Origin: a virus
Direction: 5' to 3' (one strand)
Length of the DNA: 64,000 nucleotides
IMG/VR virus record: IMGVR_UViG_3300029319_009305
Location: 43,886 to 107,885 of that record
Every line of letters begins with the position of its first letter. Position 1 is the first letter of the stretch. The translations under genes and the position numbers were made by a program. The notes under the pieces are model-generated. The model was not told the DNA's origin. It made no database searches and saw only the letters and a list, made by a program, of their open reading frames with translations. This document shows positions 16,770 to 64,000 of the stretch, piece by piece.

Positions 16770-18716
16770 ATGTTTGGTCAAGATATATTTGGAACTAATT
16801 TAATCAATGAGAGAAATCTAAAAGAAGAAATAAAAGATTGTGATGTCGTATTTGTTTCTGACTTGTACATTGATGATTATGTAGGTGGTGCAGAATTAAC
16901 CACAGAAGTTTTGTATCAATATTCAAATCACACTTTTGTGAATAAAAAAGTTTGCAAGATAAAATCAGATCAAGTCAACAAAGAATTGATTGAGGCTGGA
17001 TTACTAAAGAAGTGGGTTTTCTTTAATTATGCTGCCATGAGTATGAATTTAATCCCTATTATTGTTGCAAATCTGAATTATTCAATAGTTGAATATGATT
17101 ACAAATTTTGCAAGTATCGATCAACCGAAAAACATCTTTCTATTGAGTCAAAAGAATGTGATTGCCATAATCAGCAACAAGGAAAGATTGTGTCTGCTTT
17201 CATGTATGGTGCAGAATTTTTATTTTGGATGTCTGAAGAACAAAAGAATTTCTATTTTAAACTTTTTCCTTTTTTGAGTAGCAAGGACAATACTGTTGTA
17301 ACCTCTGCATTTACAAGGGCTACATTAGTACAACTTAAAGAATTAAGGTCTAATTCAAAAGAGCGAAAACAAAAAGCTATAATCATAGGTTCTAATTCAT
17401 GGATTAAAGGTGTTGAAGACTCTGTAGAATACTGTAAAAAAGAATTATCAGTTGATTATGATATTGTTTCTAACTTAAGACATTCTGATTTATTGAAAAA
17501 ATTAAGTGAATATGAACATTTTGTTTTCATGCCGAAAGGAAAGGACACATGCCCGAGAATAGTAATTGAAGCTAAACTCGCAGGTTGCAAAATCCACATT
17601 AACGATAACGTACAACATAAGGAAGAAGATTGGTGGAACAAAGATTTAGATTCTATTGATAAATTCTTAAGAAATGGTCCACAAGAAAAATTTTGGGGAA
17701 AATTAAATGGTTATTTTGTCAGATCAGAAAAAGTTAGTGGTTATACAACAACCCGTGATTGTATTGATCAAAAATACCCATTCAGACAGTGCATAGAATC
17801 AATGCTTGGATTTTGTGATCAAGTAGTCGTTGTAGATGGAGGATCCACAGATGGAACATGGGAGGCTTTGAAAGAAATTGCTCAAAAAGATGATAGGGTT
17901 TTAGTTGAGCAAAGAATCAGAGATTGGGATCATCCAAGATTTGCTGTGTTTGATGGTTTACAAAAAGCATATGCAAGAAGCTTGTGTACGGGTAAGTGGT
18001 GTTGGCAGATGGATAGTGACGAAATAGTTCACGAAAAGGATTACACAAAAGTTAAAAACCTTTTGAGAGATATTCCAAAGTCAATTCACTTATTAGCTTT
18101 ACCTGTTGTTGAATATTGGGGTGGTCCTGAGAAAGTAAGGGTTGATGTAAATCCCTGGAAGTGGCGCCTTAGTAGAAATTTAAAGCATATAACACACGGT
18201 ATTCCTGCTCAATTAAGAAAAAATGATGATGAAGGAAACCTCTATTCTTTACCAGGATCAGATGGGTGCGATTATATTGATAAAGACTCGTACCAGACAA
18301 TTCCATGTATGCATTTTTATGATCAAAATATTCATGATATAAGAATATCAGCATTAAAGGGAGATCAAAAAGCAGTTGAAGCTTATGAAAACTGGTTCAA
18401 TAACTTAATAGAAAATTTACCAGGAGTACATCATTATAGTTGGTTTGATCTGGAAAGAAAAATACACACTTATAAGAACTATTGGTCAAAGCACTGGCAG
18501 AGCCTTTATAATGTTGAGCAAGAAGATACACCAGAAAATAATATGTTTTTTGATAAGTCTTGGAAAGATGTAACAGACGATGAAATTAAAGATTTATCAA
18601 AGAAACTAAAAGAAGAAATGGGTGGATGGATATTCCATAATAAGGTTGACTTTAATCAAGGAACGCCTTATATCCTTATTGAAAGAGGCGAGCCTGAAAA
18701 TATGAGAGATAAATGA
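16770..18716 (+). CDS. two-domain glycosyltransferase (GT-B/GT4-like plus GT2)
   Basis: GGAE, DTCPRIVIEAKLAGC; VVVDGGSTDGT, QMDSDE. Confidence 0.8.
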   Translation: MFGQDIFGTNLINERNLKEEIKDCDVVFVSDLYIDDYVGGAELTTEVLYQYSNHTFVNKKVCKIKSDQVNKELIEAGLLKKWVFFNYAAMSMNLIPIIVANLNYSIVEYDYKFCKYRSTEKHLSIESKECDCHNQQQGKIVSAFMYGAEFLFWMSEEQKNFYFKLFPFLSSKDNTVVTSAFTRATLVQLKELRSNSKERKQKAIIIGSNSWIKGVEDSVEYCKKELSVDYDIVSNLRHSDLLKKLSEYEHFVFMPKGKDTCPRIVIEAKLAGCKIHINDNVQHKEEDWWNKDLDSIDKFLRNGPQEKFWGKLNGYFVRSEKVSGYTTTRDCIDQKYPFRQCIESMLGFCDQVVVVDGGSTDGTWEALKEIAQKDDRVLVEQRIRDWDHPRFAVFDGLQKAYARSLCTGKWCWQMDSDEIVHEKDYTKVKNLLRDIPKSIHLLALPVVEYWGGPEKVRVDVNPWKWRLSRNLKHITHGIPAQLRKNDDEGNLYSLPGSDGCDYIDKDSYQTIPCMHFYDQNIHDIRISALKGDQKAVEAYENWFNNLIENLPGVHHYSWFDLERKIHTYKNYWSKHWQSLYNVEQEDTPENNMFFDKSWKDVTDDEIKDLSKKLKEEMGGWIFHNKVDFNQGTPYILIERGEPENMRDK

Positions 18717-19456
18717 AAGAAACTAAATTTGTATTTCTAACGCCTGCTTATAATTGTGAAAATACAATTAGCCAAACTTTATTTTCTATGTTCGCACAAT
18801 CATATTGTAACTGGAGAGCAATTATAATCGATGATGTTTCGGATGATGGCACTAGTAAACAAATTCAAAGAATCATAGATAATTACCAGTTTTCAGATAA
18901 GATCAAGTTGAAAAGAAGGGAAGAGAAGTTTGGTGAAGTTAGAAATACTGTAGAAGAGGTATTCAACCATATAGACGATGATGAAGTTGTAGTTCGACTA
19001 GATGCAGGTGACTGGTTAACAGAAAATGATTGTCTTTATATGTTGAATGAGATTTATAAAAATCACAATCCTGCTGTTTGTTGGACCGGGCAACGTTGGG
19101 CTTATACAAACTATGGAATATCAAAAAAAATGAATCTACAGCCAAATCAGAGCGTTTATGAACATCCCTGGGTTTCTAGTCACCTTAAAACTTTTAGGGC
19201 TAAAGCTTTAAAAAAGGTAAGTAAGGGTAATTTCTTTGATGATGATGGAAACTGGATAATGATTGCTTGTGACCAGGCAGTTTTCTTACCAATGATGCAT
19301 TTAGCTGTAAAAGAAAAATTACCGCTTGTATTTTTCCCGCATGTGTGTTATCATTACAACATAGACTTAGAAAAACCAGATCTATTTACAGAAGATCGAT
19401 CAATACGCCAAAAATATTCAGCTGAATGGATTAGGAGTAGAGGATATGTTGAGTGA
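18713..19456 (+). CDS. GT2 glycosyltransferase
   Basis: TPAYN, IIDDVSDDGT, RLDAGD. Confidence 0.85.
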   Translation: MKETKFVFLTPAYNCENTISQTLFSMFAQSYCNWRAIIIDDVSDDGTSKQIQRIIDNYQFSDKIKLKRREEKFGEVRNTVEEVFNHIDDDEVVVRLDAGDWLTENDCLYMLNEIYKNHNPAVCWTGQRWAYTNYGISKKMNLQPNQSVYEHPWVSSHLKTFRAKALKKVSKGNFFDDDGNWIMIACDQAVFLPMMHLAVKEKLPLVFFPHVCYHYNIDLEKPDLFTEDRSIRQKYSAEWIRSRGYVE

Positions 19457-20364
19457 AAGTATACACCCACAATTTTAACCCAGCTTCAAATAGCGGTCCA
19501 AATAAATTTACCAGAACTTTATTCAATCAATTAATCAAAGATGAGAAAGTAACTTTATGTAGCCAAGAATTGGCCGACGTTGAATTCTGTTTAATTCAAC
19601 AACAGGTACATAAGGTTAAACCTATGGTTTTGCGTTTAGATGGTATATGGTTTAATTCTGATCAAGATTACAACAAACAGAATGAACCAATTAAATTTTC
19701 TTATGAAAATGCTGATGCTGTTATTTTTCAGTCAGAATTTAATAAAAAATTAACTGAAAAATGGTTTGGGAAACATCATAATTCTCACGTAATACATAAT
19801 GCTGCTGATTTAGAATTAATAAGATCAGCAAATGCAAGATTTTGGGATACTAAGTTTGGAAAAAATACAGAAGTTTGGTCGTGTGCGTCATCTTGGAGAC
19901 CACATAAAAGATTGAATGATAATATTAGATACTTTTTAGAATTTGCGCCTAAAGATGCTATTTTTGCAATTGCTGGTGCACTTGGCATGGATGATGCTAA
20001 AAAAATACCTAATGATAAGCGAATAGTTTTAATGGGTGACTTAGACTATATGAGTTTACTTTCACTGTATAAACGATCATCAACATTTGTACACTTAGCA
20101 TATCTTGATCATTGTCCGAACGTAGTTGTTGATGCACAAGCAGCAGGTTGCAAGATAATTTGTAGCATGTCAGGCGGTACGAATGAAGTGGTTAGCGATG
20201 GAATTGTAATTTACGAGAAAACTTGGGATTTTAGCCCCACAAGATTATATTATCCTCCTCCAATGGAATGGATTAAAATAGAAAAGAAAATAAATTATGA
20301 AGAAAAGTCGACAATTGTAAATTGCGCAGAGAAATATTTTAATGTGATGAAGGAGATAGCTTGA
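19453..20364 (+). CDS. GT4-like glycosyltransferase
   Basis: IFQSEF, DHCPNVVVDAQAAGC. Confidence 0.8.
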   Translation: MKVYTHNFNPASNSGPNKFTRTLFNQLIKDEKVTLCSQELADVEFCLIQQQVHKVKPMVLRLDGIWFNSDQDYNKQNEPIKFSYENADAVIFQSEFNKKLTEKWFGKHHNSHVIHNAADLELIRSANARFWDTKFGKNTEVWSCASSWRPHKRLNDNIRYFLEFAPKDAIFAIAGALGMDDAKKIPNDKRIVLMGDLDYMSLLSLYKRSSTFVHLAYLDHCPNVVVDAQAAGCKIICSMSGGTNEVVSDGIVIYEKTWDFSPTRLYYPPPMEWIKIEKKINYEEKSTIVNCAEKYFNVMKEIA

Positions 20365-21281
20365 AAGTTTTTGTTTTAGCTCCCCAAGAGGACTGGATAT
20401 GTGACAGACTTGTGGGAGAATGGTACGAATATTTTCCTGAATATTCAACAAGAAATGCTTACGAAGCTGACATCATCTGGTTGCTAGCAGGATGGTGTTG
20501 GAACCATATTCCGGTTGAGTTACTCAGAAATAAAAAAATAATAGTGACAGAACATCATATAGTACCGGAAAAATTTGACAATCAAAAATATGAAAATTTT
20601 AAAATGAGAGATCAATTTGTTGATTGCTATCACGTGCCTAATGAAAAAACAAAAAGTTTGTTACAACAAATAACAGACAAAAGAATAGAAGTTATATCTT
20701 ATTGGTATAATGAAAAATTATGGCAACCTACAGATTCAAAAAAAGCAAAAAGTTATTTAGGTTTATCTGAAGAAAAATATTACGTAGGATCTTTTCAACG
20801 AGATACAGAAGGCTCAGATTTAAAGACACCAAAATTAGAAAAAGGGCCCGATATTTTTTGTGATTATCTAATTAGGAATAGAAATAAATTAAATAATCTT
20901 CATGTCCTATTGGGCGGCTGGCGTAGACAATATGTTGAAAATAGATTAAAAGAAGCAGGAATAGAATACACGCTTTTTGAAAAAACTAATATTGAAAAAA
21001 TTAAAATGTTATATTCGGCGTGTGATTTATATATTGTTAGCTCTAGGTATGAGGGAGGTCCTCAAGCAATCATTGAAGCTGCAGCAATGAAAGTGCCTAT
21101 AATATCTACAGATGTAGGAATAGCAAATACAGTCCTTAATAAGAATTGTATTGTTGATATAAGTAAAGATTTTTATACACCTAATGAAAAGGATGTAGAA
21201 TTTGCTTACGAAAAAGTTTTAAAATTAAACTTAAAAGAGCATGGAAAAAAATTCATTAAATTTTTCATGGAGGTAAAATGA
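20361..21281 (+). CDS. GT4 glycosyltransferase
   Basis: SRYEGGPQAIIEAAAMKVPIISTDVG. Confidence 0.85.
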   Translation: MKVFVLAPQEDWICDRLVGEWYEYFPEYSTRNAYEADIIWLLAGWCWNHIPVELLRNKKIIVTEHHIVPEKFDNQKYENFKMRDQFVDCYHVPNEKTKSLLQQITDKRIEVISYWYNEKLWQPTDSKKAKSYLGLSEEKYYVGSFQRDTEGSDLKTPKLEKGPDIFCDYLIRNRNKLNNLHVLLGGWRRQYVENRLKEAGIEYTLFEKTNIEKIKMLYSACDLYIVSSRYEGGPQAIIEAAAMKVPIISTDVGIANTVLNKNCIVDISKDFYTPNEKDVEFAYEKVLKLNLKEHGKKFIKFFMEVK

Positions 21282-22249
21282 AAACAAGAAAACGTGCGCT
21301 AATTACTGGAATTAATGGAATGGACGGTTCACACTTAGCTGATTTTTTGCTTGAAAAGGACTATGAAGTGTTTGGCGTTGAAAGAAGATCTTCTGTTAAA
21401 AACAGAAAAAATACAAAACACCTTGAGGGTAAAATAACTTTTCTAACAGGCGACTTAACAGATCAAAATTCATTGTTTAGATGCTTAAAAAATAGCAACC
21501 CCCACGAAGTATATAATTTAGCTGCCCAATCTTTTGTAGGAGAAAGTTGGAATACTCCTGAACAAACATCAGACGTGACAGGATTAGGTGCACTAAGAAT
21601 GCTTGAAGCAATTAGAGAATACGGTAGAAGATTAAAGTTTTATCAAGCAAGCACTTCAGAACTTTACGGAAGAATGGTTGAAAACCCTGCAAAGGAAACG
21701 ACTCCATTTTACCCTAGAAGTCCGTATGGAGTCGCTAAACTATATGCACACTGGATAACCAAAAATTATAGAGAATCATATGACATGTTTAACGTATCAG
21801 GTATACTTTTTAATCATGAATCAGAAAGAAGAGGTCTTGAATTTGTTACTAGAAAAATTAGTAATGGAGTTGCCAAAATAAGTCTAGGGTTGAGCGATCA
21901 TATTTCATTAGGTAATTTAGATTCTAAGCGGGACTGGGGATATGCACCTGATTATGTAGAAGCTATGTGGTTGATGATGCAACAGGATGAACCAGATGAT
22001 TTCGTAATAGCAACAGGTGAAGCTTATTCAATTAGAGACTTTTTAGATGTTGCTTTCGATTGTGTAGGTATTAATAATTGGAATGAATACGTTCGTCAAG
22101 ATCCACGTTACATGAGACCAGCTGAGGTTGATGTTTTAAGGGGTGATTACTCTAAAGCTAAGAAAAAGTTAGGTTGGGAGCCTAGAACTGATTTCAAAAC
22201 ATTAGTCAGTAACATGGTAAAAAGTGATATAAATTTTTTAAAGGAGTAA
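21278..22249 (+). CDS. gmd: GDP-mannose 4,6-dehydratase
   Basis: GINGMDG, NLAAQSFV, YQASTSE, PRSPYGVAK, NHESERRG, FVTRKI, RDWG. Confidence 0.93.
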   Translation: MKTRKRALITGINGMDGSHLADFLLEKDYEVFGVERRSSVKNRKNTKHLEGKITFLTGDLTDQNSLFRCLKNSNPHEVYNLAAQSFVGESWNTPEQTSDVTGLGALRMLEAIREYGRRLKFYQASTSELYGRMVENPAKETTPFYPRSPYGVAKLYAHWITKNYRESYDMFNVSGILFNHESERRGLEFVTRKISNGVAKISLGLSDHISLGNLDSKRDWGYAPDYVEAMWLMMQQDEPDDFVIATGEAYSIRDFLDVAFDCVGINNWNEYVRQDPRYMRPAEVDVLRGDYSKAKKKLGWEPRTDFKTLVSNMVKSDINFLKE

Positions 22250-22251
22250 TT

Positions 22252-23109
22252 ATGAGTAATTTATATAAGTTTGAATGGCACACGCATCTGTGTGAATATT
22301 ACGGGGTAACTCCTGAGGATGCTTTAAAACTAGGAACGAGAAAGACTGGCAGGCGCCCTAGCTTACCTGGTTCGGAAACATGTCAACCTGTTGAAGGTAA
22401 AAATCTCGAAGAAATATGGGAAATGAAAGAACGAACAGACCTAAAAGATGTTTTTGATTTCTACAAAGATCAAGGAGCTTGGAGTTCATTTAGACAATGT
22501 GTTAGACACAAGGATTTAGAACAGTATCACTTAAACATGTTAGGGGTTTTAAGACAGTTAAAAGTTTTGAAAGAAGGAACTCATATTTGTGAGTATGGTT
22601 GCGGTGTTGCTCCTTATGTTACTTCTCTTTTGAAATATTTAGATCCATCAACAGAGGTGAAATTAAAACTAACAATGGCAGACGTTGATTGTGATCATTT
22701 TAATTTTGCAAAATTTAGACTCAATGACATCAAAGAAAAAAGAGGTTTTACAAATGTTGATATGAACTTTGAAACAATAACACCAGAAAAATTACCTAGT
22801 TTCAACAATGAAAATCTAGATGTCGTTATTTGTTTTGAAGTTTTAGAGCATACACCCAGCCCCGTGGATGTTATTAATAATATCAAAGATAATATGGCAC
22901 CAGGAGGTGTATACATAGAAAACTTCATAAAGCATCCACCTCCACCAGAAGATGATACTGGTGGCCCGGATTTAGAATCTGCTAGACTAGAAAGAACTGC
23001 ATATTACGAAATACTTGAAGAATACTTTAATTTAGTTTCTTCTAGGGGGATAGCAGATCCTCACAATCATCCTAACGAAACAAGAGTTTGGCAGAGAAAC
23101 TCTCTCTAA
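22252..23109 (+). CDS. class I SAM-dependent methyltransferase
   Basis: EYGCG, CFEVLEH. Confidence 0.8.
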   Translation: MSNLYKFEWHTHLCEYYGVTPEDALKLGTRKTGRRPSLPGSETCQPVEGKNLEEIWEMKERTDLKDVFDFYKDQGAWSSFRQCVRHKDLEQYHLNMLGVLRQLKVLKEGTHICEYGCGVAPYVTSLLKYLDPSTEVKLKLTMADVDCDHFNFAKFRLNDIKEKRGFTNVDMNFETITPEKLPSFNNENLDVVICFEVLEHTPSPVDVINNIKDNMAPGGVYIENFIKHPPPPEDDTGGPDLESARLERTAYYEILEEYFNLVSSRGIADPHNHPNETRVWQRNSL

Positions 23110-23122: not shown

Positions 23123-23827
23123 ATGAGAAAAATATTTATTAAAGAAAAATTGAAAGAAATGAACGTCCAATTGGAAGACATTGTAATGGGAGATTTTGAT
23201 GTCATTGGTGAATATACGGCAAAAAAGCCTAGATCACCTGATTCTGACTATTACAAAAAGTACGGATGCTTTTTTAGGCCCAACTATGAAAGAGGAATAT
23301 TGATGTATTACCTTATCAGGAAAAATGAGGTAAATTCTGTTTTAGAGATTGGTTTCGGAAGAGGGTATTCTGCGTTTTGCATGGCAAAAGCAATGTGCGA
23401 TCATGGGATAGATGGTAAGATTACAACTGTTGACCCTAGTTTAGATAAAAATTTTCTGGAACAGCTTACGAGAGTTTTTCCTAAAATATGGTTTGACAAA
23501 ATTGAATTTATGGGTTGCACATCTGATACGTATTTTGAAAAAAATCCGGATAAAAAATTTGATTTAATATACATAGACGGAGATCATACTTACAACGCAG
23601 TCAAAAAAGATTGGGAAAACTCTAGAGAAAGGTACAATAAATTTCTACTATTTGACGATTATCATTTACCTACAAAGCAACAACCAGAAATAGAATGCTC
23701 TAAAGTAATTGATAAGATTGATGATAAAAGCAAAGAACTTATAATCTTAGATAGAAGAATGTTCTATGATGATCTTTTAAGAAAAGACGAAGATATTGAT
23801 TATGGTCAGGTTTTGTTAACGAAATAG
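23123..23827 (+). CDS. class I SAM methyltransferase (Methyltransf_24-like)
   Basis: LEIGFGRGYS, IYIDGDH, FDD. Confidence 0.82.
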   Translation: MRKIFIKEKLKEMNVQLEDIVMGDFDVIGEYTAKKPRSPDSDYYKKYGCFFRPNYERGILMYYLIRKNEVNSVLEIGFGRGYSAFCMAKAMCDHGIDGKITTVDPSLDKNFLEQLTRVFPKIWFDKIEFMGCTSDTYFEKNPDKKFDLIYIDGDHTYNAVKKDWENSRERYNKFLLFDDYHLPTKQQPEIECSKVIDKIDDKSKELIILDRRMFYDDLLRKDEDIDYGQVLLTK

Positions 23828-23841: not shown

Positions 23842-24771
23842 GTGAAATTGTATATAAACAGATCAGTTATGAATAAACCATGGGGTGGTGGTGGACATTT
23901 TGTAACTAATTTTACTAACTATATGAAAAGAAGGGGTCACGATGTTGTATTTAATTTTGTAAAAGATATTGATGTTATGTTACTTATAGACCCGAGACCT
24001 AGTGAATTAGGTTCGTCAATCAATGACGTCTTGCAGTATAAACATTATTTCCCTAAAACCAAAATAGTTCATAGGATTAATGAGTGTGATAAGAGAAAAA
24101 ACACAAACTTTATTGACGACTTAATAGTAAGATCAAATGAATATGCTGATGAGACAATATTTATAAGTCAATGGTTGAAAGACTATTTTTATGCTAAAGG
24201 TATCAATCGAGATAGTCATGTCATATACAACGGATGTAATACAGAACATTTTAAGCCTAGTGATAAATTATTTGATAATAAAAATGTAAAATTAGTGACT
24301 CATCATTGGTCTGACAATTGGCTGAAAGGTTTTGATATATATACAAAAATAGATGAGTACATAACAAACAATAATTGTAATTTTGAATTTACTTATGTCG
24401 GGCGCTACAACAAGAATTACAGTCCTAAATCAACAAGCATAGTAGAGCCACTTTATGGTGAAAGCTTAGGAGAGGAATTAAGAAATCATGACATATATGT
24501 AACAGCTTCTAGATTTGAACCCTGCGGTATGCATCATATTGAAGGGGCTGCTTCTGGACTTCCTGTATTGTATCATATTGATGGCGGGGGAATAAATGGA
24601 TTATGCTCTTATCATGGAGAATCCTTCAGTAATTTTGATGAATTTCTAGAAAAATTAAAACTATTGATAGACAATTATCAGAAGTTCAAGGACAAGATTG
24701 ATTATAAGCGTCTGTGTGCAGAAAAATGTAGCGAAATGTATTGTAAAGTATTAGAAGAAATTATATTATAG
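23842..24771 (+). CDS. GT4-like glycosyltransferase
   Basis: WGGG, SRFEPCGMHHIEGAASGLP. Confidence 0.82.
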   Translation: MKLYINRSVMNKPWGGGGHFVTNFTNYMKRRGHDVVFNFVKDIDVMLLIDPRPSELGSSINDVLQYKHYFPKTKIVHRINECDKRKNTNFIDDLIVRSNEYADETIFISQWLKDYFYAKGINRDSHVIYNGCNTEHFKPSDKLFDNKNVKLVTHHWSDNWLKGFDIYTKIDEYITNNNCNFEFTYVGRYNKNYSPKSTSIVEPLYGESLGEELRNHDIYVTASRFEPCGMHHIEGAASGLPVLYHIDGGGINGLCSYHGESFSNFDEFLEKLKLLIDNYQKFKDKIDYKRLCAEKCSEMYCKVLEEIIL

Positions 24772-54462: not shown

Positions 54463-54483
54463 GCAACAAGGATTAAATGAACT

Positions 54484-57400
54484 ATGACAAAAAAATCTAT
54501 TTTATCAAATCAGAATCCTGGAACTGCTTTATTCGATAACAATTTTAAACACTATAAAACAATTGGATTTGATAACGATACAGCAGGGAATTTTAAAAAA
54601 TTTAAGTCCATGAGAGATTTATCTGAACTGTCAAAGGAAGAAACTTTTTTTGAAGATGACTATAGATTTGACGGTCCTGACTCTGGCGTAAGATCAACAC
54701 AGCAAATAAATTTAGATTACGAAGTGTTTGAAAATCACGTATTTTTTGATTCTGCTGTATCTAAAATTAATATTGCATTTGATAAGATTGTGAATGAGTT
54801 TCCCTTTGAAAAAACTGAAGCTGAACTTAATGAATATCTGCAAAGCTTAACTGGTTATGAGCGTTACATATTGAATTTGTTTGGTAAATCTTTAGGGTAT
54901 TTAACGTTGTCTGGCTCTGCTGTGGGTGAAAATTCAGGAGGTCAATATATTGAGATTAAAGATTCTGCTGGATCTTTATACCCGACGTTTTCTACAAGGA
55001 ATGATACTAAACCTGTATTAAGCCCTAAAAACAGCCCGTTTACGATTGAAGCATATATTAGTCTACCAACAGTTGTTAATGACAACCAGGTAATATTCCA
55101 GTATAAAAAAACTGAAAAATTTGGAATCATGCTCTCGTTAAGCGCTTCTGACGACACTTCTAAATGCAATATAGTTTTCGATGTGACGTCAGGGTCAAAT
55201 CATAGTTATGTATCATCTAGTTTTGATAAGGGTAAATTTTATCATGTTGGGGCCGCTTATTCTGTATCCAATAACCCGGGAAAATCTTTGCTTTACATAG
55301 ACTCTGTGTTGAAAGCAACGTCATCAATGACCTTAGAACTTACAAATTTTGATTTAAGTGCACAAGACTCAAAAGCTTACATAGGCTCTGGAAGTATTTT
55401 AAATACAGCAAATGCAGACCCAGACATATCGACAGGAGTTTTTACTCCCCAGCAGACTTTTTCCGGATCAATTGACGAATTTAGATTTTACCATCTAGAG
55501 AAAAATGAAAAAACAATTAAAGACACAATGAAAGTTAATATTTTTGGCGGGAGCGAATCTAAGTTAGCATTGTATTTTAAGTTTAATGAACCATCTGGGA
55601 GTTATCGACTTCCATCTGTGTGTTTAGATTCATCAGGTAATAGTCTTCATTCAAATATTACTAATTTCTCACATGAAATAAGAAATACGGGCAGCATATC
55701 GACACCCGTCACAGAAGAAATATTAAATAATAATCCAATATTATACCCTGATTTTCCAAAAAATACAGACTTGCACAACAGACTCATTAATTCGGCTAGC
55801 TTGTATGATGAGAAAAATCCAAATTTAATAACGAATTTAATACCTGTCCATTATCTTTTAGAAGGTAACGATTTTGAAGGCTTTCAAAACATGACTGGAT
55901 CTTACGGGAATGTTTATAAATCGCAAAGCATACCAGGATCGGGTCAGGTAGGTTCAGGGCAGCTCTTGATGTCATTCTTATTTTTATGGGCAAAGTATTT
56001 TGACGAGTTAAAAATATATATAGACACGTTATCGAGAGTGTTAAGTTACGGATACGATACAAACGAAGTAGGAATTGATAAATTTTTACCTTTTGTAGGT
56101 AAATACTACGGCATAGATCTACCCGGTATTTTCACTTCAGCAATGCAACGTCAATACAACAAAAATGTAGGAATTAATGATTTAGGCACTGTATCAACTT
56201 TATCTTTGCGAAAAGTTCAAAATCAAATTTGGAGAAGGATACTAACTAATTTAAATGCATTGAGACAATCTAAGGGAACAATATCTTCTGTAAAGGGCAT
56301 GATAAGAACCCTAGGTGTAGAGCCTGATACAATTTTCGATATTAGGGAATATGGAGGTCCTAAAGCTTTTTTCTTAGATGGTAGAAGAAAAAATATTAAA
56401 AAATCTTATAAGATGATAGATTTTTCTGGAAGCCTTGCTGACATATCAGATATTGCAACTGTTGATTCTAATACGGGTTTCAACACAAGGACACCCAGAA
56501 TAATTAGTCCATTCTTGTCAGGATCTAGAATTGAAGTAGGTTTTCCTGAAATAAAAACGGGCACTGCAACAGGTACCGTCACTATTGGTAATAGTGCTAC
56601 AGCCACAAATTTAGACGGTAAGATTATTGAAATAACAGATACAGCTGGATTAGAGAAAGTTTACATATTTGATGATGATAATGATGGTGCAACAGGAACT
56701 TTAGACGGCAGCAACAGAGTTAGAATTCAAATAAACGGCATGATGAGTTCCACAGCAGGAAGAATATTGATGGCAGCACAAGTTAAGGCTGCAATAGAAC
56801 ACGCTAATGGCCATGCAGGCTCTATAACAGTTTCAACAACTGACCAGATTGTAGGCTTGACTCAAGGTTCGTTTAATGCGAATGACGGTAATAACGCAAT
56901 AAAAACTTCTGTGACTGATGCGACTCATTTGGCAGTGTCTGGTTTCTCCGGAGGTTTTGGATATTTAAACCAGCCAAATCATAATTTTGTTCACGGAATA
57001 TCAAACAATCCTAATGATGGCTTGTTTACATCTGGATCTTTCGGGTACGATGCTGTATACAAGTTTGAAACTAATTTAAGATTCCCTTTGACACAGAGTT
57101 TGGTTAGGCTTCACATGACTGGATCTAGCGTTTCAAATTCAGCACGTTTAGTTACGAATTGTGTTTTAGTTTCTGGTTCAAGTCCTGAATTGAAGCTATT
57201 TGTTGATGCCGCCACCGCCGGCGCTAGCGCTTCAGACACAGCAAGATTACAAACTTTAGCAATAAATAGCGCCAGCTTTTTTAATGGGAACCCTTGGTAC
57301 GTAAGTTTTGGTCTAATAAGAAATGATGACAATATTATACAGGATGAGCAGTACGCTTCGTCTTCATTGTTTTTAAGAGCAATATCAGATGATGAAATTT

Positions 57401-58440
57401 ACTACGTGACTAGTTCACTTGATATGAATTATTACAATAGTACAGAAAATTATTTTCAAAACATAGATGCAGCAAAAAATGCCAGTGGTTCTTTTTTAAT
57501 AATCGGATCTCAAAGTATAAAACTTGACGGATCATCGTCACCTGTAGGATTGAGTGCAACTGGATACAACAGGATTGTTAGGGCAACAGATTTTGCTGGT
57601 AAGATTAATTTTATTAGGTTTTGGTCGAGGGGAATATCACTAGAAGAGTCACTAGAGCGGGCTAAAAACTTTAGATCTCTAGGTGTAAAAGATCCTACTT
57701 TCCAATATAATCACAACACTTTGCATACTGGGTCTTTCAACAGGTTAAGGATTGATGCAAAAACCTCAATACAGATTGCAACAGCTTCAGACAGTTCTGG
57801 TCAGATAAGATTAGATGACTTTAGTCAAAACAATTTACATTTTGTAGGGAACGGTTTTGAGCCCGAACAAGTAATTCTTAAAAATGAAATGTTTCTTCAT
57901 TCTATGCTCAGTCCTAAATTTGATATTAGGGCTTCTGATATGAAAGTTCGAGTTAGAAGCTTTTTGGAAAAAGAAAATCTGGAGAATGATGATTTTGCAA
58001 AAGCGACTCCTGTTTTTAATTTAGATGATGAATTTTCACCTGAAGATGACAATAGGTTTTCTATAGACCTGAGTGTTGTCAAAGCATTAGACGAAGACAT
58101 CATGAAAATGTTTGCCAGCATGCAATCTTTTGATAATGCTTTAGGTGATACAAGAGACCTTTTTGAAGATAGTTATATTGAATTAGAAAATTTAAGAAAA
58201 ATATACTTTAAAGACTTAATTCAAAAATTAAATTTAAGTAGTTATAGCGAATTTTTTACTTGGTTTGATGAAGCATTTACTTCACTGTTGTCAGGTTTTA
58301 TTCCTTTGAGGGCAAATTTTTTAGGTGTCAATTACGTCATCGAATCGCACGTTTTAGAGCGACACAAAATGAAATATTTTTATGATGAGCAGTATTTGCT
58401 TACAAGAACAGAAACAAGAGATAGGTTTGGTAACGTATGA
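54484..58440 (+). CDS. large LamG-domain baseplate/tail protein (gp7-like core)
   Basis: LamG motifs FTIEAYI, YHV, LYIDSV, FSGSIDEFRFY; IWRRIL...KGT...IREYG. Confidence 0.7.
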   Translation: MTKKSILSNQNPGTALFDNNFKHYKTIGFDNDTAGNFKKFKSMRDLSELSKEETFFEDDYRFDGPDSGVRSTQQINLDYEVFENHVFFDSAVSKINIAFDKIVNEFPFEKTEAELNEYLQSLTGYERYILNLFGKSLGYLTLSGSAVGENSGGQYIEIKDSAGSLYPTFSTRNDTKPVLSPKNSPFTIEAYISLPTVVNDNQVIFQYKKTEKFGIMLSLSASDDTSKCNIVFDVTSGSNHSYVSSSFDKGKFYHVGAAYSVSNNPGKSLLYIDSVLKATSSMTLELTNFDLSAQDSKAYIGSGSILNTANADPDISTGVFTPQQTFSGSIDEFRFYHLEKNEKTIKDTMKVNIFGGSESKLALYFKFNEPSGSYRLPSVCLDSSGNSLHSNITNFSHEIRNTGSISTPVTEEILNNNPILYPDFPKNTDLHNRLINSASLYDEKNPNLITNLIPVHYLLEGNDFEGFQNMTGSYGNVYKSQSIPGSGQVGSGQLLMSFLFLWAKYFDELKIYIDTLSRVLSYGYDTNEVGIDKFLPFVGKYYGIDLPGIFTSAMQRQYNKNVGINDLGTVSTLSLRKVQNQIWRRILTNLNALRQSKGTISSVKGMIRTLGVEPDTIFDIREYGGPKAFFLDGRRKNIKKSYKMIDFSGSLADISDIATVDSNTGFNTRTPRIISPFLSGSRIEVGFPEIKTGTATGTVTIGNSATATNLDGKIIEITDTAGLEKVYIFDDDNDGATGTLDGSNRVRIQINGMMSSTAGRILMAAQVKAAIEHANGHAGSITVSTTDQIVGLTQGSFNANDGNNAIKTSVTDATHLAVSGFSGGFGYLNQPNHNFVHGISNNPNDGLFTSGSFGYDAVYKFETNLRFPLTQSLVRLHMTGSSVSNSARLVTNCVLVSGSSPELKLFVDAATAGASASDTARLQTLAINSASFFNGNPWYVSFGLIRNDDNIIQDEQYASSSLFLRAISDDEIYYVTSSLDMNYYNSTENYFQNIDAAKNASGSFLIIGSQSIKLDGSSSPVGLSATGYNRIVRATDFAGKINFIRFWSRGISLEESLERAKNFRSLGVKDPTFQYNHNTLHTGSFNRLRIDAKTSIQIATASDSSGQIRLDDFSQNNLHFVGNGFEPEQVILKNEMFLHSMLSPKFDIRASDMKVRVRSFLEKENLENDDFAKATPVFNLDDEFSPEDDNRFSIDLSVVKALDEDIMKMFASMQSFDNALGDTRDLFEDSYIELENLRKIYFKDLIQKLNLSSYSEFFTWFDEAFTSLLSGFIPLRANFLGVNYVIESHVLERHKMKYFYDEQYLLTRTETRDRFGNV

Positions 58441-59603
58441 CAAGCATAGTAATAAAATCAAAAAAAGAAATAACAGATATATTTAACGAAGATTCAACGA
58501 TAGGAAAATATAGGATTGGAAGAACGTTATCTATTGATAAGCCTGTAAAAAAAGAATCATCTTTTGATCCACTAGCTGTTCCTACCGAAGCTGCATTTCT
58601 TCAGAGAGCGGATGTTATTGGTTACCAGTCTGCCACCGGATCATTTACAGGAGTTAAATCTACTTTGTGGGAGTCAGAAAGTCCTACACAGTTATCAGCA
58701 TCTGGCAGTTATTACCAAAATTCAAAAATTCGACAAGGGGTCTCCATAAGATCTACTTTTGACCTGGAAGCTGACGCTTTGCCTTACGTTTACATTCAAG
58801 GCGGATCTTCACCTTACCCTAATCATATTTTTGAAAATTTTTTACCGTCTTTTGACGAGGACTTTTTTGGTGTCAAAGAAAAGTTAAATAGAAGAAATTA
58901 TGTACCCTTTGAAGATATAATAGATCTACATCCGCAAAGATTGTCTGCTAGCGTGTATTTAGAAATGGAGGATCCGTACGCCGCCGGTATTTACCCTAAG
59001 TATTCGGGATCTCATTTTAGAAATAAATTTGACATGAATGGTATCATAGAACCTTTCGAATTAACAAGAAGGCGCCATGACATACAACAGGTCGATACAA
59101 CTTCGATATATTCAGCGAGAAAGTTCTTTTCAGGAATAAGCGCAACTGTAATGGGTAGTGAGAGGGAGTTTAGAGGATCAGGAAGAGGAGATAACCCACG
59201 AAAAGGATCAACACAAATCGTTCAGTATTACGATGTGAGGGATTCACACAATCCTGACGTTGATTTTTTTGACGATTCTCGTGAAATAGTTATACTCAAC
59301 ACAGATAAAATGAAAAAAATAAGTGCACTTGAAAATAGTCAGCAACATATTCTTAGATTTTTTGATGATACATTAGACTATGATTTAAGCAGTTATGCTT
59401 TTGCTTTAGAAACTTCACCTGATAGTATTCCTGATTTACTGTACGGGCTAAATGTTCAGCCACCGTACAATGAGAGGAGTGAGATTGGTACCAGGTTTGT
59501 TTCGGCAAAAGCAGGATTTGTTTACGAAACTACAACTGTAGGTAATACTACTTTAGGGACAGATTCAATTGCGTTTGGCGGATTGGGGAAGATAAATGCC
59601 TAG
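58437..59603 (+). CDS. putative virion protein
   Basis: Coupled in the structural operon; NGIIEPF, GTDSIAFGG. Confidence 0.6.
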   Translation: MTSIVIKSKKEITDIFNEDSTIGKYRIGRTLSIDKPVKKESSFDPLAVPTEAAFLQRADVIGYQSATGSFTGVKSTLWESESPTQLSASGSYYQNSKIRQGVSIRSTFDLEADALPYVYIQGGSSPYPNHIFENFLPSFDEDFFGVKEKLNRRNYVPFEDIIDLHPQRLSASVYLEMEDPYAAGIYPKYSGSHFRNKFDMNGIIEPFELTRRRHDIQQVDTTSIYSARKFFSGISATVMGSEREFRGSGRGDNPRKGSTQIVQYYDVRDSHNPDVDFFDDSREIVILNTDKMKKISALENSQQHILRFFDDTLDYDLSSYAFALETSPDSIPDLLYGLNVQPPYNERSEIGTRFVSAKAGFVYETTTVGNTTLGTDSIAFGGLGKINA

Positions 59604-62600
59604 AAAAAGAAAAGATAGATACGATCTCGGTGCACCTTTCAAAGCGCCTAATGGAAAAAGTTATACTGCAAAATCAGTGGAAAGCTTAGTTCTTTGGCTT
59701 GATTTTGCATCAACATTGATTGACAGGACGAGCAACCCCAATGTTGAAACGCCAACCCTTGAATATCAAGGATCAGTGCCTACGAGAAATGAAAAAATAG
59801 AAGATAGTATAAATTTTTATAACATTGCAAGGTTTGATAATAGCGAAAATTTAAATGCGCTAGCAACATACGATGCTGTAACAAATCCGATTAATTTCGG
59901 AGACGGAACAACTGACAAGCCTTTTTCTGTAAGTCTGTGGTATAGAAGAAGTGGAACTTTGGCAGACACAACGACTGAAAACTTGTTCTACAAGGGAGAC
60001 ACATCTTCAAAGACAGAGTATCAAGCATATATAACCATGGTCGCAATACTAGCATTTCAAGTACTTGACGAATCAACAGGAGCTCACCGGAGAGCTTTTA
60101 TAGACTTTGGTGACTTAGCAGATATTGACAATATTTGGATGCATCTTGTTTTTACATATGATGGGTCAGGAACTTCAGCAGGCCTAAAAATATATAGGGA
60201 TGGAGTTTTGTTAGCAACGTCAACAAACGATAGCGGTACATATACTGCCATGGAACAACAATCAACAAAGCTTTTTATAGGCGCTAGTCATGACGGTTCA
60301 TCTGAAGCTGACGGAGATTTTGCAGAATTTGCTATTTGGTCTCGAGAGTTGCCAGCTGATGAAATATCAGCAATATACAATGCGACAACATCGCTTACAC
60401 TGGAGTCATCTGGAATTGTTAATTCTCCCATTAGATCACGAATACGTGAAATGGATAGTAGGATTGGCATGTATCCAACAATAGGGCGAACAGGTGATAG
60501 AGATAGGAAAGGCTTCGGGTCAGTATTAGCTTTTGATGATCGAAATACCCAATTATTTGGTGCACCTGTTTTAGATGACAAATATTACCCAGTATCGCTT
60601 ACTCAAAATTTCTCTTCTGAACGAAACTATCAGTATGGCTATTCAAGCGCAGCATCTTTAATTGAATGGTTTCACATTGGAAAGTTTGCTGCTGATGGAG
60701 TAACTCCTTCTGTTGCGGTAAGAAAAGCAACAGGGGTTCAGACTGTTCAACTGGTCAGTGACCCAATTAAGTCTTCAATAACAATAGGAAATTACACATA
60801 TGATTCTATAACTTTTGACGATACTGATAATTCATATGTTCGTCTTAATTTTGCATCAACAGATAATACTCTGACTTTCGGAGATGGATCAGATGACACT
60901 CCGTTTACTTTTAGCTGGATTATGGAATTGACGCCTGCTGGTTTAGGTAAGCTATCGAACTCTATATCAAATGAATTATTTGCAAAGAGCGATGGAACTT
61001 CGAAGCAAGAATATTACGCATCAGTTCTGTCAAATGGTCAATTAAGCATAGTCTTGATGGATGAATCATCCGGAGGTTTTATCCAGGGTAAATCATCTGA
61101 ACCAGCTGACAAAGTAGATTTTTGGTCTAGACCACGCCACGTCGTTGTTACATACGATGGTTCAACTAACAACTCAGGAATAAAGTGGTACGTTGATGGT
61201 GTTTTAGACACAGGAACACCCGGAGGCGGAGGATCTTATACTGCATTGGAACAGAATTCAGATCATTTTTACTTTGCTACAAACGAATTCAATCTAGGCA
61301 CTAAAATTGGTGATCTTAAAATGGCTGAATTAGCTGTTTGGGGTGTGGAGCTAACGCCACAGGAAGTGCAGACTGTTTATAATTTTATAACTAAACCCAT
61401 ATTTAAAGATCCGGGTTACATTTTAGACTCAGGTACTTGCTTGTTATCAGGTGGTTTCATTGCAAACCAACACAAGCATTTTTCAACTCCAAATCAACCA
61501 GGGTCCCGTTTTGTTGTGACAGGAAATATGTTGGCAGGGGTTGCAGATAATTTTGATTCAACAGATTACAAATATTTAGCTGCAGTTGACAAGAACAATG
61601 AATCAATAACAGCGTTTAATGAAGCAAAAGTTATATTAAAAGATAATGAATTTTACTTAACTGGCACAAGCGAAACAACTTTTCCAGGATTTTCTGGTCG
61701 TTTGCATGACAAGACACAAATACAGATTGACCTTAGCACTAATGAGCCTACAAAATTTGGTTACACGGAAAAATCAACTTTCAAGAGAGACGGAGCAGCC
61801 CATGTTTCTATTGGCGGTACATCAGGACATTCAACGCTTACACTCGACGGATCAAATGTTCGCACGCAGTTAATGGTTTACTGGAATAACACTTTGAAGC
61901 GTTGGGAAAAAATTGCGAAAGGTGTTGGCGCAAATACACAACAGCATACAAGAAATGATTCTAATATTAGTATGTATAAAGAATTAGGTGAGATGATAGA
62001 TACAGCTGCTATTGGTTTTGGTAATTGTTCCGGTATTATTGCAACATCATCTGTCCGGACAGAGGAATCTGGTGAAGAGCAACAAACTTACGATTTACAA
62101 CCAGAGTCTGTTATTAAAATGATGGGCAAGCCAACGTCTGTATACGGTTTTCCTTCGCATGGTAAGTTTCATGCAACGGGAAGTCAAACAATTAAAATGA
62201 GTGACTATATTGATCGACCAGTTGTTTTAGAAAAATGTAATTTACAATTTTCTGCAAAGTTACAATTTGCTAATGATGGAGGGGCAGATCATCGGATGTT
62301 TGTATCAATGGTTGGTAGTTCATCCGCAGGAATTCCTTCAACTTACGCTTACGAAGATGATTTCATAAATATGATGCCAACATTTTTTATGCTTAGACAA
62401 TTTAAGCAAGGCAATGAAGTAACTTACAAAAGAGACTTTTCTTTAAATTATAATATCGCAGATTCTCCTGGGACAGGTTATGGTAATCTATATGGTACAT
62501 ACAAAAAAGGTGTTGCGTTACTTTCACTTAGACTTTCGCAAACAGGTAGTAGTCTGCATGATATGGATTTTACGCTACCTGGATTTTTTCAATTAGCTTC

Positions 62601-64000
62601 TGGGTCAGATACAACAACTTATGTTGATACAAACAGAGACTTAGTAACTTTTGGTCAAATCAATTTCTTCGCGAAAGGACAACCTGCACACACTAGATTT
62701 AACGCGACAGATCTTATTGATAAAATGGCAGGGGACGCAAAGGTTAACTTACTTAATAAGTTTGGATCAGCTTCGGAAGGTGTTCTTTGGCAAGGAAACG
62801 TTGTCGGAGCTGGTACAACTTTACCTGATTATACAGGTAGTTATCAAATGGACTTCCCGTGTAGAACTGTTCCTGTGTTACCTCCGCGGTTTGGAAGTGC
62901 TGTACAATTTGCTACGTCATCAGGCGGAACAACGTATTATTATGGAATACTAGGTAATGAGTTTGATGGAGGTCGTACACTAGCTTTGAACAATACAGTA
63001 CCTTCTGTTGGTCCTGAGTCATTACCAGAAAGAGTTAATCCAGCAAATATGAGCATAACAGGGAGAAGTTTAACTAGAGAAATTGCTGCTTATGATCCGG
63101 GCGTTGTTGCACCACTAAAGTTGTCAGATACTTCGACAGATGCGCTGGTAGATGTTTCGTTGCCTAGCATTGAAACACTAGACGTTGATTCTCCTTACAT
63201 TTTATTTCCTGAGGATGAAATTGTTTTAGGGTGGCAGTATCCAATGCCCTCAACTTACGGATTAGCAAATCATTTGCCTAACTCAATTTTCTCGACAGGG
63301 TCAAATCACATGGTTTTGGATGGACCGTCAACACTTACGCTTTTCTGTTCACAAATAAAAAATAACGTTGAGTATCATGACACCTTAAATCAACCTTTAA
63401 CTTCTGAGGTAATTCACGAATCCATACATTACGACAATCCTGTGATAGATCAATGGCAAGTATCTTTGAGAGGGGAGTATACGGGTAGTTACTTAGACGA
63501 TTATTCTAACAGTTCAGGTATTGGCACGATTGTAGATACTTACCTAAATAGTGGCAATCAACTGGCAGGTTCCTTTCAAAGGTTTGTGCGTTGTAGTGGT
63601 AAAGACGATATCCTTTATGACTCGATGTTACCTGATCCTTTAGCTTTGTGGACACATCAAACAGGTATATCAACTTACCTGTCTTCAAGCGGCGAAAGAT
63701 TTGTAAGTTTTGGTTTGTCTGGCAGCGCTGTTGATGATGAATTGGTTGACGCTGTAGGTAATTCAAACCCTGATTGGTTTAGATCTTTTGTATACAACAA
63801 CGATCTTAAGCGTGTTCCTGTTAAATCACAGGTTGCAAATTTAGCAAACACAGTTTTGTTATTTAGTGATGGAAAATCATCAGCAACTGCTTTTGGAAAT
63901 ACAGCAGATCAAAAAATCAGCTTATTTAAAGGATTTAATTTTAACGGTACTTCAGAGGTTAGTGCAAAAGTTATAATTGGAAATGCAGATCAAAGAGAGA
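59596..64000 (+). CDS. very large tandem-LamG virion/tail protein, 3' truncated by the window
   Basis: ATG at 59596 overlaps the previous stop; no in-frame stop seen by eye to 64000; LamG motifs PFSVSLW, WMHLVFTYDG, KIYRDG, EFAIWSREL and a second copy HVVVTYDG, WYVDG, ELAVWGVEL. Confidence 0.8.
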   Translation, partial: MPRKRKDRYDLGAPFKAPNGKSYTAKSVESLVLWLDFASTLIDRTSNPNVETPTLEYQGSVPTRNEKIEDSINFYNIARFDNSENLNALATYDAVTNPINFGDGTTDKPFSVSLWYRRSGTLADTTTENLFYKGDTSSKTEYQAYITMVAILAFQVLDESTGAHRRAFIDFGDLADIDNIWMHLVFTYDGSGTSAGLKIYRDGVLLATSTNDSGTYTAMEQQSTKLFIGASHDGSSEADGDFAEFAIWSRELPADEISAIYNATTSLTLESSGIVNSPIRSRIREMDSRIGMYPTIGRTGDRDRKGFGSVLAFDDRNTQLFGAPVLDDKYYPVSLTQNFSSERNYQYGYSSAASLIEWFHIGKFAADGVTPSVAVRKATGVQTVQLVSDPIKSSITIGNYTYDSITFDDTDNSYVRLNFASTDNTLTFGDGSDDTPFTFSWIMELTPAGLGKLSNSISNELFAKSDGTSKQEYYASVLSNGQLSIVLMDESSGGFIQGKSSEPADKVDFWSRPRHVVVTYDGSTNNSGIKWYVDGVLDTGTPGGGGSYTALEQNSDHFYFATNEFNLGTKIGDLKMAELAVWGVELTPQEVQTVYNFITKPIFKDPGYILDSGTCLLSGGFIANQHKHFSTPNQPGSRFVVTGNMLAGVADNFDSTDYKYLAAVDKNNESITAFNEAKVILKDNEFYLTGTSETTFPGFSGRLHDKTQIQIDLSTNEPTKFGYTEKSTFKRDGAAHVSIGGTSGHSTLTLDGSNVRTQLMVYWNNTLKRWEKIAKGVGANTQQHTRNDSNISMYKELGEMIDTAAIGFGNCSGIIATSSVRTEESGEEQQTYDLQPESVIKMMGKPTSVYGFPSHGKFHATGSQTIKMSDYIDRPVVLEKCNLQFSAKLQFANDGGADHRMFVSMVGSSSAGIPSTYAYEDDFINMMPTFFMLRQFKQGNEVTYKRDFSLNYNIADSPGTGYGNLYGTYKKGVALLSLRLSQTGSSLHDMDFTLPGFFQLASGSDTTTYVDTNRDLVTFGQINFFAKGQPAHTRFNATDLIDKMAGDAKVNLLNKFGSASEGVLWQGNVVGAGTTLPDYTGSYQMDFPCRTVPVLPPRFGSAVQFATSSGGTTYYYGILGNEFDGGRTLALNNTVPSVGPESLPERVNPANMSITGRSLTREIAAYDPGVVAPLKLSDTSTDALVDVSLPSIETLDVDSPYILFPEDEIVLGWQYPMPSTYGLANHLPNSIFSTGSNHMVLDGPSTLTLFCSQIKNNVEYHDTLNQPLTSEVIHESIHYDNPVIDQWQVSLRGEYTGSYLDDYSNSSGIGTIVDTYLNSGNQLAGSFQRFVRCSGKDDILYDSMLPDPLALWTHQTGISTYLSSSGERFVSFGLSGSAVDDELVDAVGNSNPDWFRSFVYNNDLKRVPVKSQVANLANTVLLFSDGKSSATAFGNTADQKISLFKGFNFNGTSEVSAKVIIGNADQRE

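Follow-up and report, generated by a model that had tools for sequence, protein, structure and literature searches.

What does a large tailed phage decorate with the product of some 31 kb of sugar-biosynthesis genes lying ahead of its baseplate operon? The question is raised by IMG/VR record IMGVR_UViG_3300029319_009305, a 107,885-bp viral contig that lacks a terminal repeat, ends in an open reading frame (ORF) that is still open, and covers part (108 kb) of the genome of a large, uncultured marine myovirus. The window analyzed here is its last 64 kb (positions 43,886 to 107,885), and positions below are those of the window unless stated otherwise. Between 16770 and 47527 lies a phage-borne, hypervariable glycan-biosynthesis block, the island, all of whose enzymes are soluble; for its glycan we tentatively favor an acceptor on the virion.

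The glycan island and its hotspot

The island holds 37 ORFs, every one on the + strand and with intergenic gaps of no more than 77 nt, in good agreement with the roughly 34 co-oriented genes of the original prediction, a reading from sequence alone that proposed a virion glycosylation system. By Pfam, nine are clear glycosyltransferases (GTs), including three GT2 enzymes (starts at 16770, 18713 and 40317), five GT4 enzymes (19453, 20361, 23842, 45080 and 46358) and a GT-A enzyme with a Glyco_transf_7C domain (39512); with two further transferase leads from language-model comparison only (25995, GT2-like; 34800, Glyphos_transf-like), they bear out the earlier count of about ten, and the four predicted S-adenosylmethionine (SAM) methyltransferases were all found by Pfam (22252, 23123, 33243 and 40942). 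The nucleotide-sugar enzymes named earlier hold at the family level: only Gmd (21278) and the nucleoside diphosphate (NDP)-sugar dehydrogenase (41658) reach curated NCBIfam cut-offs, and the HldE-half, RmlC, NeuA/NeuB and DmhA-like genes are divergent family members scoring under the equivalog cut-offs. To that list can be added a B12-radical SAM enzyme (27916), a split transketolase (29453, 30282), a radical SAM/SPASM protein (37803), a DUF4910 protein (35919), a ferredoxin (43848) and, outside glycan metabolism, a PD-(D/E)XK nuclease (44186).

No transmembrane (TM) segment was detected in any island protein by a Kyte-Doolittle 19-residue scan at a threshold of 1.6, and Pfam scans of all island genes returned no flippase, polymerase, ABC permease or polyprenyl-phosphate priming transferase. 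The earlier claim that export, polymerase and priming genes and TM segments are missing is thus upheld gene by gene, and with an all-soluble gene set the glycan acceptor must be reachable from the cytoplasm.

Homologues of one island glycosyltransferase, GT4-A (45080–46342), are present at 60–75% identity in at least 90 IMG/VR contigs, and 80 related viral loci were fetched for comparison. The relatives reach 293 kb, the size of one complete genome that has terminal repeats; marine viromes commonly contain the lineage, which is distant kin of Flavobacterium phage immuto, Microcystis phage Mel-JY01 and Rhodothermus phage RM378, which share baseplate genes or GT4-A at about 24–32% identity. When the gp6-like protein and GT4-A were searched against 50,697 phage records, the matches were these three phages, huge phages and Bacillus phage BCD7 (partial matches), with no cyanomyovirus or pelagimyophage among them. 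As to a place among the moraphages, PMC12619734 names neither immuto, Mel-JY01 and SAR11 nor any IMG/VR contig. Across the related contigs, whose synteny had been suggested as a check, the order is variable island, nuclease, GT4-A, GT4-B, a small TM protein, a sigma-like factor and then the baseplate operon, with the anchor genes in 70–80 of the 80 loci and sugar genes upstream of them in variable form. Upstream of a Ugd/UXS pair, itself found in about half of the loci, the co-oriented enzyme genes differ from contig to contig. In the 80 loci, 287 island ORFs unmatched by proteins of the window fall into 170 clusters; their Pfam assignments include methyltransferases, short-chain dehydrogenase/reductase (SDR) epimerases, nucleotidyltransferases, CMP-transferases and GT2 enzymes, as well as sulfotransferases, aminotransferases, KdsA-like proteins, NeuB and HAD enzymes. 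In two relatives (L027 and L032) phoH lies no more than 10 kb upstream of the nuclease and the islands are far shorter. Since the content varies while the flanks hold, and phoH bounds the short islands in two relatives, we regard the island as flexible content in a hotspot of fixed position. Not one multi-TM protein (at least three TM segments, coding strand) was found among 619 upstream ORFs in about 507 kb of islands from the 80 relatives.

An assembly error that fused a bacterial polysaccharide locus to a phage contig, an alternative raised with the original prediction, would also place such genes here. The gene content is like that of bacterial glycan loci and one cassette has SAR11 homologues, but these are only 32–59% identical at the protein level, and the composition of the island is that of the phage: codon usage correlates with that of the upstream phage flank (r 0.97), GC content at third codon positions (GC3) is 0.25 in island and flanks, tetranucleotide usage correlates at 0.97 with phage DNA versus 0.86 with the SAR11 loci, and neither GC nor GC skew shifts at the joins. 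On either side lie phage genes (phoH, baseplate genes and, upstream, 44 kb of small genes), and sugar genes occupy the same place relative to the conserved phage block in 80 independent viral contigs. Exact pieces of flank and island occur at similar depth in independent marine runs; among the pieces listed, which are short, none bridges the 16.7-kb junction, and the listing includes no RNA dataset. In view of the codon usage, the GC3 and the 80 contigs with the same architecture, a chimera is very unlikely.

Anchor block and promoter classes

The conserved anchor block opens with the PD-(D/E)XK nuclease (44186–45031; PDDEXK_1; 70 of 80 loci), which has TATAAT-type promoters upstream, and continues with GT4-A, a retaining glycosyltransferase, and GT4-B (46358–47527); like all genes described from phoH to the window end, these are on the + strand. 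Both glycosyltransferases are core to the lineage, being present in all 80 loci at median identities of 69% and 48%, respectively. The EX7E motif is invariant in GT4-A and kept in GT4-B, which rules out a GtfA/GtfB-like pair with an inactive partner. The AlphaFold 2 (AF2) model of GT4-A has a predicted local distance difference test score (pLDDT) of 88.7, and its N-terminal, acceptor-side domain is nearly invariant among relatives; the best fold match is the chlorovirus glycosyltransferase 3oy2 (GT4), a weak match to a generic fold.

Following GT4-B after an 11-nt gap is a 107-aa protein with one N-terminal TM helix (47539–47862; 78 of 80 loci), whose gene overlaps the start of the sigma-like gene and which could be an anti-sigma-type regulator. 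The sigma-factor-like protein (47804–48613; 78 of 80 loci) had been named a gp55-like sigma, and the two halves of that name fare differently. A region-2.2-like motif, KFDxxRGxKAFSYFNVxAKN, aligns to T4 gp55, and nearly all of the top listed PDB fold matches of the AF2 model (pLDDT 80.6; about 40 rows) are sigma factors, at weak Foldseek E-values of 0.02–0.3. The AlphaFold model also carries a second, sigma4-like helical domain, which T4 gp55 is not known to have. The protein has no Pfam or PHROG match, no PDB sequence match with protein or profile, and an hhalign probability of 0.3% against gp55, and no TATAAATA late promoters occur within the window. We accept it as a predicted sigma-like protein that lies outside the gp55 sequence family.

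Promoter-like motifs fall into distinct classes. Six of the eight matches to TTGnnn-N16-18-TATAAT on the contig are in the island, and among the intergenic gaps inspected TATAAT-type -10 elements precede 16770, 25995, 34800, 38818 and 44186, with TTGTAA-17-TATAAT before 25995 and TTGAAA-17-TATAAT before 34800. Upstream of GT4-A, 23 of 62 dereplicated relatives have TT[TG]AC-N16-18-TA..AT (TTTACT in the examples seen). An AT-rich, late-type motif, [AT]ATA[TA]TTA, precedes gp25 in 19 of 49 cases versus none of 62 before GT4-A, and is also found at downstream structural genes. From GT4-B through the small TM protein to the sigma-like gene, neighboring genes lie 11 nt apart or overlap. The motif classes and this tight spacing suggest that the island and the GT4 pair belong to a sigma70-like, pre-late class and would be transcribed with the factor that probably turns the late genes on, the baseplate genes having a different, late-type motif. 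A third class, apart from those of the island and the structural genes, comprises 22 copies of GTGCAAA-N16-TATAAT (with ATAAA after) confined to the small-gene region at contig positions 10706–40213, upstream of the window; its GTGCAAA -35-like box recalls an activator (MotA-type) box.

Candidate acceptors of the glycan

One part of the island is shared with bacteria. The B12-binding radical SAM (B12-rSAM) enzyme (27916–29451), probably a sugar C-methylase or rearranging enzyme by family, has at least 4,700 marine homologues, and among its relatives in prokaryote reference genomes 12 of 16, including all the closest, are from Pelagibacteraceae (53–59% identity, on contigs of up to 435 kb). In five SAR11 loci (Pelagibacteraceae contigs L098, L100, L101, L109 and L110) the order rSAM, transketolase N half (TK_N), transketolase C half (TK_C), (RmlC,) SDR equals the phage order, at 32–59% amino-acid identity, and the shared cassette hints that SAR11 may be the host. 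In SAR11 itself the cassette may make a branched or C-methylated surface sugar not yet described. Proteins with 8–11 TM segments lie within a few kb of it, and 18 of 189 ORFs in these loci have at least four; the TM scan therefore works, and the phage islands are specifically without the membrane half of such pathways. No close homologue of GT4-A was found in five SAR11 genomes.

We tentatively place virion proteins first among the acceptors. In the cytoplasm, a conserved phage protein would be primed by the two core GT4 enzymes, the variable island would extend the primed acceptor into a strain-specific, partly methylated glycan carried on the virion, and synthesis of the glycan enzymes would precede expression of the late genes. 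Giant viruses (chlorovirus, Mimivirus) are established cases of virion glycosylation by soluble viral glycosyltransferases, and their glycan clusters, like the island here, are lineage-specific and include methylated and rare sugars. Such glycosylation is also established in mycobacteriophages, as cited in PMC12619734. That GT4-A and GT4-B form a core in phages of hosts from four phyla, that the N-terminal domain of GT4-A is nearly invariant and that five SAR11 genomes have no close homologue point to a phage-borne rather than a host-specific acceptor. The lack of multi-TM proteins in the islands of 80 relatives, when such proteins are found beside the SAR11 cassette, supports an acceptor on the virion, as does, weakly, the chlorovirus GT4 fold match, and island content that differs between close relatives is as expected for an exposed structure. 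A fuller picture, possible if rather doubtful, is that a widespread and probably SAR11-infecting lineage covers the virion in a glycan that varies by strain and is partly host-like (with methylation, branching and ulosonic acid), that this glycan is made entirely in the cytoplasm on phage proteins and primed by the GT4 enzymes, and that the dedicated hotspot maintains a phage 'serotype' system.

Several observations weigh against virion proteins as the acceptor. In the marine lineage the glycosyltransferase genes adjoin the baseplate, yet behind sigma70-type motifs, and the island and the GT4 pair, which would be co-transcribed with the sigma-like gene, differ in motif class from the structural genes. 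Neither immuto nor Mel-JY01 has a glycan island before its baseplate: in immuto some 30 kb separate the nuclease-GT4-GT4 block from the baseplate and a small sugar cluster comes after the block, in Mel-JY01 the distance is about 80 kb and genes for a clamp loader and SAM synthase precede the block, and in RM378 it lies between a DNA-polymerase-I-like gene and ribonucleotide reductase. The surroundings in Mel-JY01 and RM378 are replication genes, and in immuto and Mel-JY01 one gene intervenes between the nuclease and the GT4 gene(s). Adjacency to virion genes is weak evidence, because the block consists of a nuclease, the GT4 enzymes and a sigma-like factor with promoters of their own, and is remote from the baseplate in distant relatives; of the original case for soluble cytoplasmic synthesis on virion proteins, the all-soluble pathway stands and the argument from the neighboring structural operon is weakened. 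No glycosylation sequon was found in the virion proteins. The pattern [ST][GA]S is 5–7-fold over-represented in three outer baseplate/fiber proteins (52906–59603; 12 versus 1.7 expected, 19 versus 3.3 and 5 versus 0.8) and absent from nearly all other proteins, but was rejected as a sequon, as its contexts (hydrophobic-x-SGS-hydrophobic, SGSIDEFRFY) resemble a LamG structural motif. The capsid and tail-tube genes lie off this partial contig, and the branched-sugar cassette, being common to SAR11 cell-surface glycan loci, fits remodeling of the host surface equally well.

Such remodeling ranks second and is somewhat unlikely. Soluble phage enzymes and peripheral glycosyltransferases would divert or decorate lipid-linked lipopolysaccharide (LPS) or capsule intermediates of the host, whose flippase, polymerase and ligase would export them, and the altered receptor surface would provide superinfection exclusion or spare progeny from loss on debris. 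This is the published reading of analogous islands in pelagimyophages (PMC7029224) and cyanomyoviruses (PMC12801897). The rSAM, TK_N, TK_C, RmlC, SDR order shared with Pelagibacteraceae contigs, there beside multi-TM proteins, is in its favor, and so is the pre-late promoter class. Since glycosyltransferases of bacterial O-antigen loci usually have no TM segments, their absence here does not weigh against the host envelope. However, about 507 kb of islands contain no flippase, polymerase, ABC permease or priming transferase, so that full reliance on host export would be needed, and host Wzx, Wzy and ligases tend to be specific for the repeat unit of their own pathway. Phages of Rhodothermus, Flavobacterium and Microcystis share the core GT4 pair with this marine lineage, across hosts with different envelopes, and the lack of a close GT4-A homologue in the five SAR11 genomes also argues against the host surface.

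Phage DNA ranks third and is improbable as the acceptor, the remaining weight going to mixed or other acceptors. Here the core GT4 pair, perhaps with island transferases, would glycosylate a hydroxylated pyrimidine as in T-even phages, and variable donor sugars would reflect an arms race with nucleases. ThyA homologues in two large relatives, G001 (L091:1342–2184, + strand) and G004 (L090:1207–2184, − strand), resemble CMP/dCMP hydroxymethylases more closely than thymidylate synthases, with Asp where E. coli ThyA has Asn177 (residue logic of PMC13326640), and some members of the lineage probably carry hydroxymethylated or otherwise C5-modified cytosine. The G004 gene has a carbamoyltransferase-domain gene on one side and an NDP-sugar epimerase on the other, the nuclease-GT-sigma neighborhood parallels T4 genes 46/47, a-gt and 55, the promoters are pre-late, and heptose, Kdo, hexose and arabinose have all been documented in glycans of phage DNA. 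However, Mel-JY01 and RM378 have no such ThyA homologue, immuto has a canonical ThyA, and two relatives about 76% complete have none; nor was a Tet/JBP match found, in a search without a positive control. That three complete relatives with the GT4 pair have neither a hydroxymethylase-type ThyA homologue nor a Tet/JBP match weakens DNA as a conserved acceptor. The hydroxymethylase genes are more than 100 kb from the GT4 pair, and the partial contig itself has no ThyA gene of this type. Known DNA glycans have at most three sugars, versus 9–11 transferases and four methyltransferases here; GT4-A and GT4-B profiles give no meaningful score against T4 a-gt, the sole DNA glycosyltransferase compared by sequence, and no T4 DNA glycosyltransferase is among the listed top fold matches of GT4-A (ranks to 50). 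SAR11 is reported to have almost no restriction-modification systems (PMC7029224), and we note that the literature on RM378, immuto and Mel-JY01 yielded nothing on glycosylation or DNA modification. GT4-A has an isoelectric point (pI) of 5.8 (median 5.9 in 61 relatives) and the island glycosyltransferases of the phage are neutral or acidic, those of the SAR11 loci having values of 8.7–10; an argument from acidic charge against DNA binding was dropped, as T4 a-gt itself has a pI of 6.1 and SAR11 ORFs are basic overall.

Hypervariable glycan gene sets are already known in pelagimyophages and cyanomyoviruses, and the island is an unusually large and well delimited example from another lineage. 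The pelagimyophage host-recognition cluster (Zaragoza-Solas et al. 2020, PMC7029224) is likewise a large hypervariable region by the baseplate/fiber genes of big marine myoviruses, with many glycosyltransferases and sugar genes (rfaE and UDP-glucose dehydrogenase among them) and a likely SAR11 association; in contrast, the island here consists of enzyme genes only, has no fiber genes and is anchored on the nuclease-GT4-GT4-sigma block. The reading given for that cluster, a change of the host O-chain, is itself a hypothesis (PMC7029224). The T4-like cyanophages P-SSM2, S-SCSM1 and S-SCSM2R, of more than 200 kb, carry 22–24 glycan genes, with up to 13 glycosyltransferases, epimerases, RmlC, KdsA/KdsB and a TagD-like cytidylyltransferase (PMC12801897), whereas here 37 genes form one contiguous 31-kb block with a B12-rSAM/transketolase cassette and a NeuB-type module; S-SCSM2R has PgaA (PMC12801897), and the island has no export protein. 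Mycobacteriophage virion glycosylation (Freeman et al. 2023, as cited in PMC12619734), like that of giant viruses, uses virus-encoded soluble glycosyltransferases in the cytoplasm without a lipid carrier; the mycobacteriophages have 1–4 such genes inside the structural operon, whereas the system here, predicted from genes, has pre-late promoter motifs. Phage DNA glycosylation clusters (T-even a-gt/b-gt; glycans on 5hmC and 5hoC: bioRxiv 10.1101/2023.12.21.572611; PMC13326640) also combine glycosyltransferases with sugar activation, are variable and use heptose or Kdo, and they share hydroxymethylase-like ThyA homologues with some members of the lineage, but they comprise few genes for at most three sugars and are linked to a ThyA homologue or TET, a link not seen in the three complete relatives or on this contig. 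Bacterial Wzx/Wzy/ABC O-antigen and capsule loci, including those of SAR11, have the same enzyme families and in one cassette the same gene order, but the island is without a priming transferase, flippase, polymerase, chain-length regulator or ABC exporter, and the SAR11 loci have 8–11-TM proteins nearby.

Glycan gene sets of marine myoviruses, those of P-SSM2 and then of pelagimyophages, have been reported without a demonstrated target (PMC12801897, PMC7029224). New here are the nuclease-GT4-GT4-sigma anchor, the lineage-wide lack of membrane components, the cassette shared with SAR11 and the split in promoter class. The fixed hotspot, two invariant and assayable GT4 enzymes, about 0.5 Mb of islands without a membrane component, the SAR11-shared cassette and cultured distant relatives that keep the core pair (immuto, Mel-JY01 and RM378) give a handle on the question of the target; knowing the acceptor would tell apart virion camouflage or adhesion, receptor remodeling of very abundant ocean bacteria and a new class of DNA hypermodification.

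Gene content of the island and its flanks

At the upstream edge of the hotspot is a phoH-like gene (15400–16713; PHROG 2765, E 8e-101). The first island gene codes for a 648-aa GT2 enzyme (16770–18716) with Glycos_transf_2 at residues 339–440 and an extended -10-like TATAAT upstream; its 338-aa N-terminal part has no Pfam match. Further Pfam assignments are a GT2 enzyme (18713–19456), two GT4 enzymes (19453–20364 and 20361–21281), two SAM methyltransferases (22252–23109 and 23123–23827) and another GT4 enzyme (23842–24771), with GDP-mannose 4,6-dehydratase (Gmd; 21278–22249; TIGR01472, 435 bits against a cut-off of 415) among them. A heptose-1-phosphate adenylyltransferase-like gene (24787–25185; rfaE_dom_II, 161 bits, under the cut-off) has as its split HldE-like partner a heptose-7-phosphate kinase-like PfkB gene (25133–25945; rfaE_dom_I, 102 bits, also under the cut-off). 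The 298-aa protein at 25995–26891, a possible GT2-like transferase and a lead only, has no Pfam or NCBIfam match, and its nearest ESM Atlas cluster is a viral GT2 (score 0.96).

An NDP-sugar 4,6-dehydratase of the Gmd/RmlB family (26899–27903; GDP_Man_Dehyd, 263 bits, under all equivalog cut-offs) precedes the B12-rSAM gene. Pfam and NCBIfam then place the transketolase N half (29453–30289) and C half (30282–31244), an RmlC-like 3,5-epimerase (31244–31771), a cupin (31771–32151) and a short SDR reductase (32148–32840). The region 32837–34732 codes for a 137-aa unknown protein, a methyltransferase (33243–34058), a 121-aa unknown protein and a second cupin (34364–34732). A 365-aa protein (34800–35897) is a possible GT-B-type transferase, again a lead only, with a weak TIGR04396 match and Glyphos_transf-like and polysialyltransferase-like clusters in ESM Atlas; next is an aminopeptidase-like protein with DUF4910, DUF2172 and HTH_47 matches (35919–37229).

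An ulosonic-acid module consists of a PseF/KdsB-like CMP-sugar cytidylyltransferase (37232–37813), the radical SAM/SPASM protein (37803–38759) and a short NeuB-like synthase (38818–39534). After it come the GT-A transferase with Glyco_transf_7C (39512–40327), a GT2 enzyme (40317–40940), a methyltransferase (40942–41661), a short Ugd-like NDP-sugar dehydrogenase (41658–42512; 46 of 80 related loci) and a UXS/epimerase-like SDR (42487–43404; 41 of 80). At 284 aa and 238 aa, respectively, the Ugd-like and NeuB-like proteins are far below canonical size, their matches missing the C-terminal part of the canonical profiles, and the short Ugd-like form is kept in 46 of 80 relatives despite its reduced size. 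A cytidylyltransferase-like gene (43394–43858) and a 4Fe-4S ferredoxin (43848–44108) complete the variable part.

Judging from the enzyme families, the activated sugars would include a GDP-6-deoxyhexose, a heptose-type nucleotide sugar, a CMP-ulosonic acid and UDP-GlcA/UDP-Xyl types, and the dehydratase, B12-rSAM, transketolase, epimerase and reductase may yield a branched or C-methylated deoxysugar. Some 9–11 transferases and the four methyltransferases would be on hand to assemble them.

Downstream of the sigma-like gene are two conserved proteins of unknown function, of 121 aa and 516 aa (48616–50482; the 121-aa gene in 78 of 80 loci). The larger (48932–50482) had been called gp5, a name that Pfam, PHROG and PDB do not support, and a peptide-pattern search found no relatives of the protein. 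The other structural assignments are confirmed: a gp25-like baseplate wedge protein (50561–51049; 78 of 80 loci) and a gp6/Baseplate_J-like protein (51053–52906; 72 of 80), followed by outer baseplate/fiber proteins (52906–63999), two of which have LamG domains (54484–58440, and 59596 to the window end, where the gene is open). In about 20 related loci besides L021 (15354–16490), a 310–380-aa protein with 3–7 predicted TM segments and no credible Pfam family lies between the homologue of 48932–50482 and gp25, a protein that is absent from the window. At 8086–12541 of the window, YeaH-like, SpoVR-like and PrkA-like genes stand in a row with strong PHROG matches (19072, 35217 and 22605), and PrkA homologues at about 30–35% identity are found in Thermus phages, Ralstonia phage RsoM2USA and huge phages.

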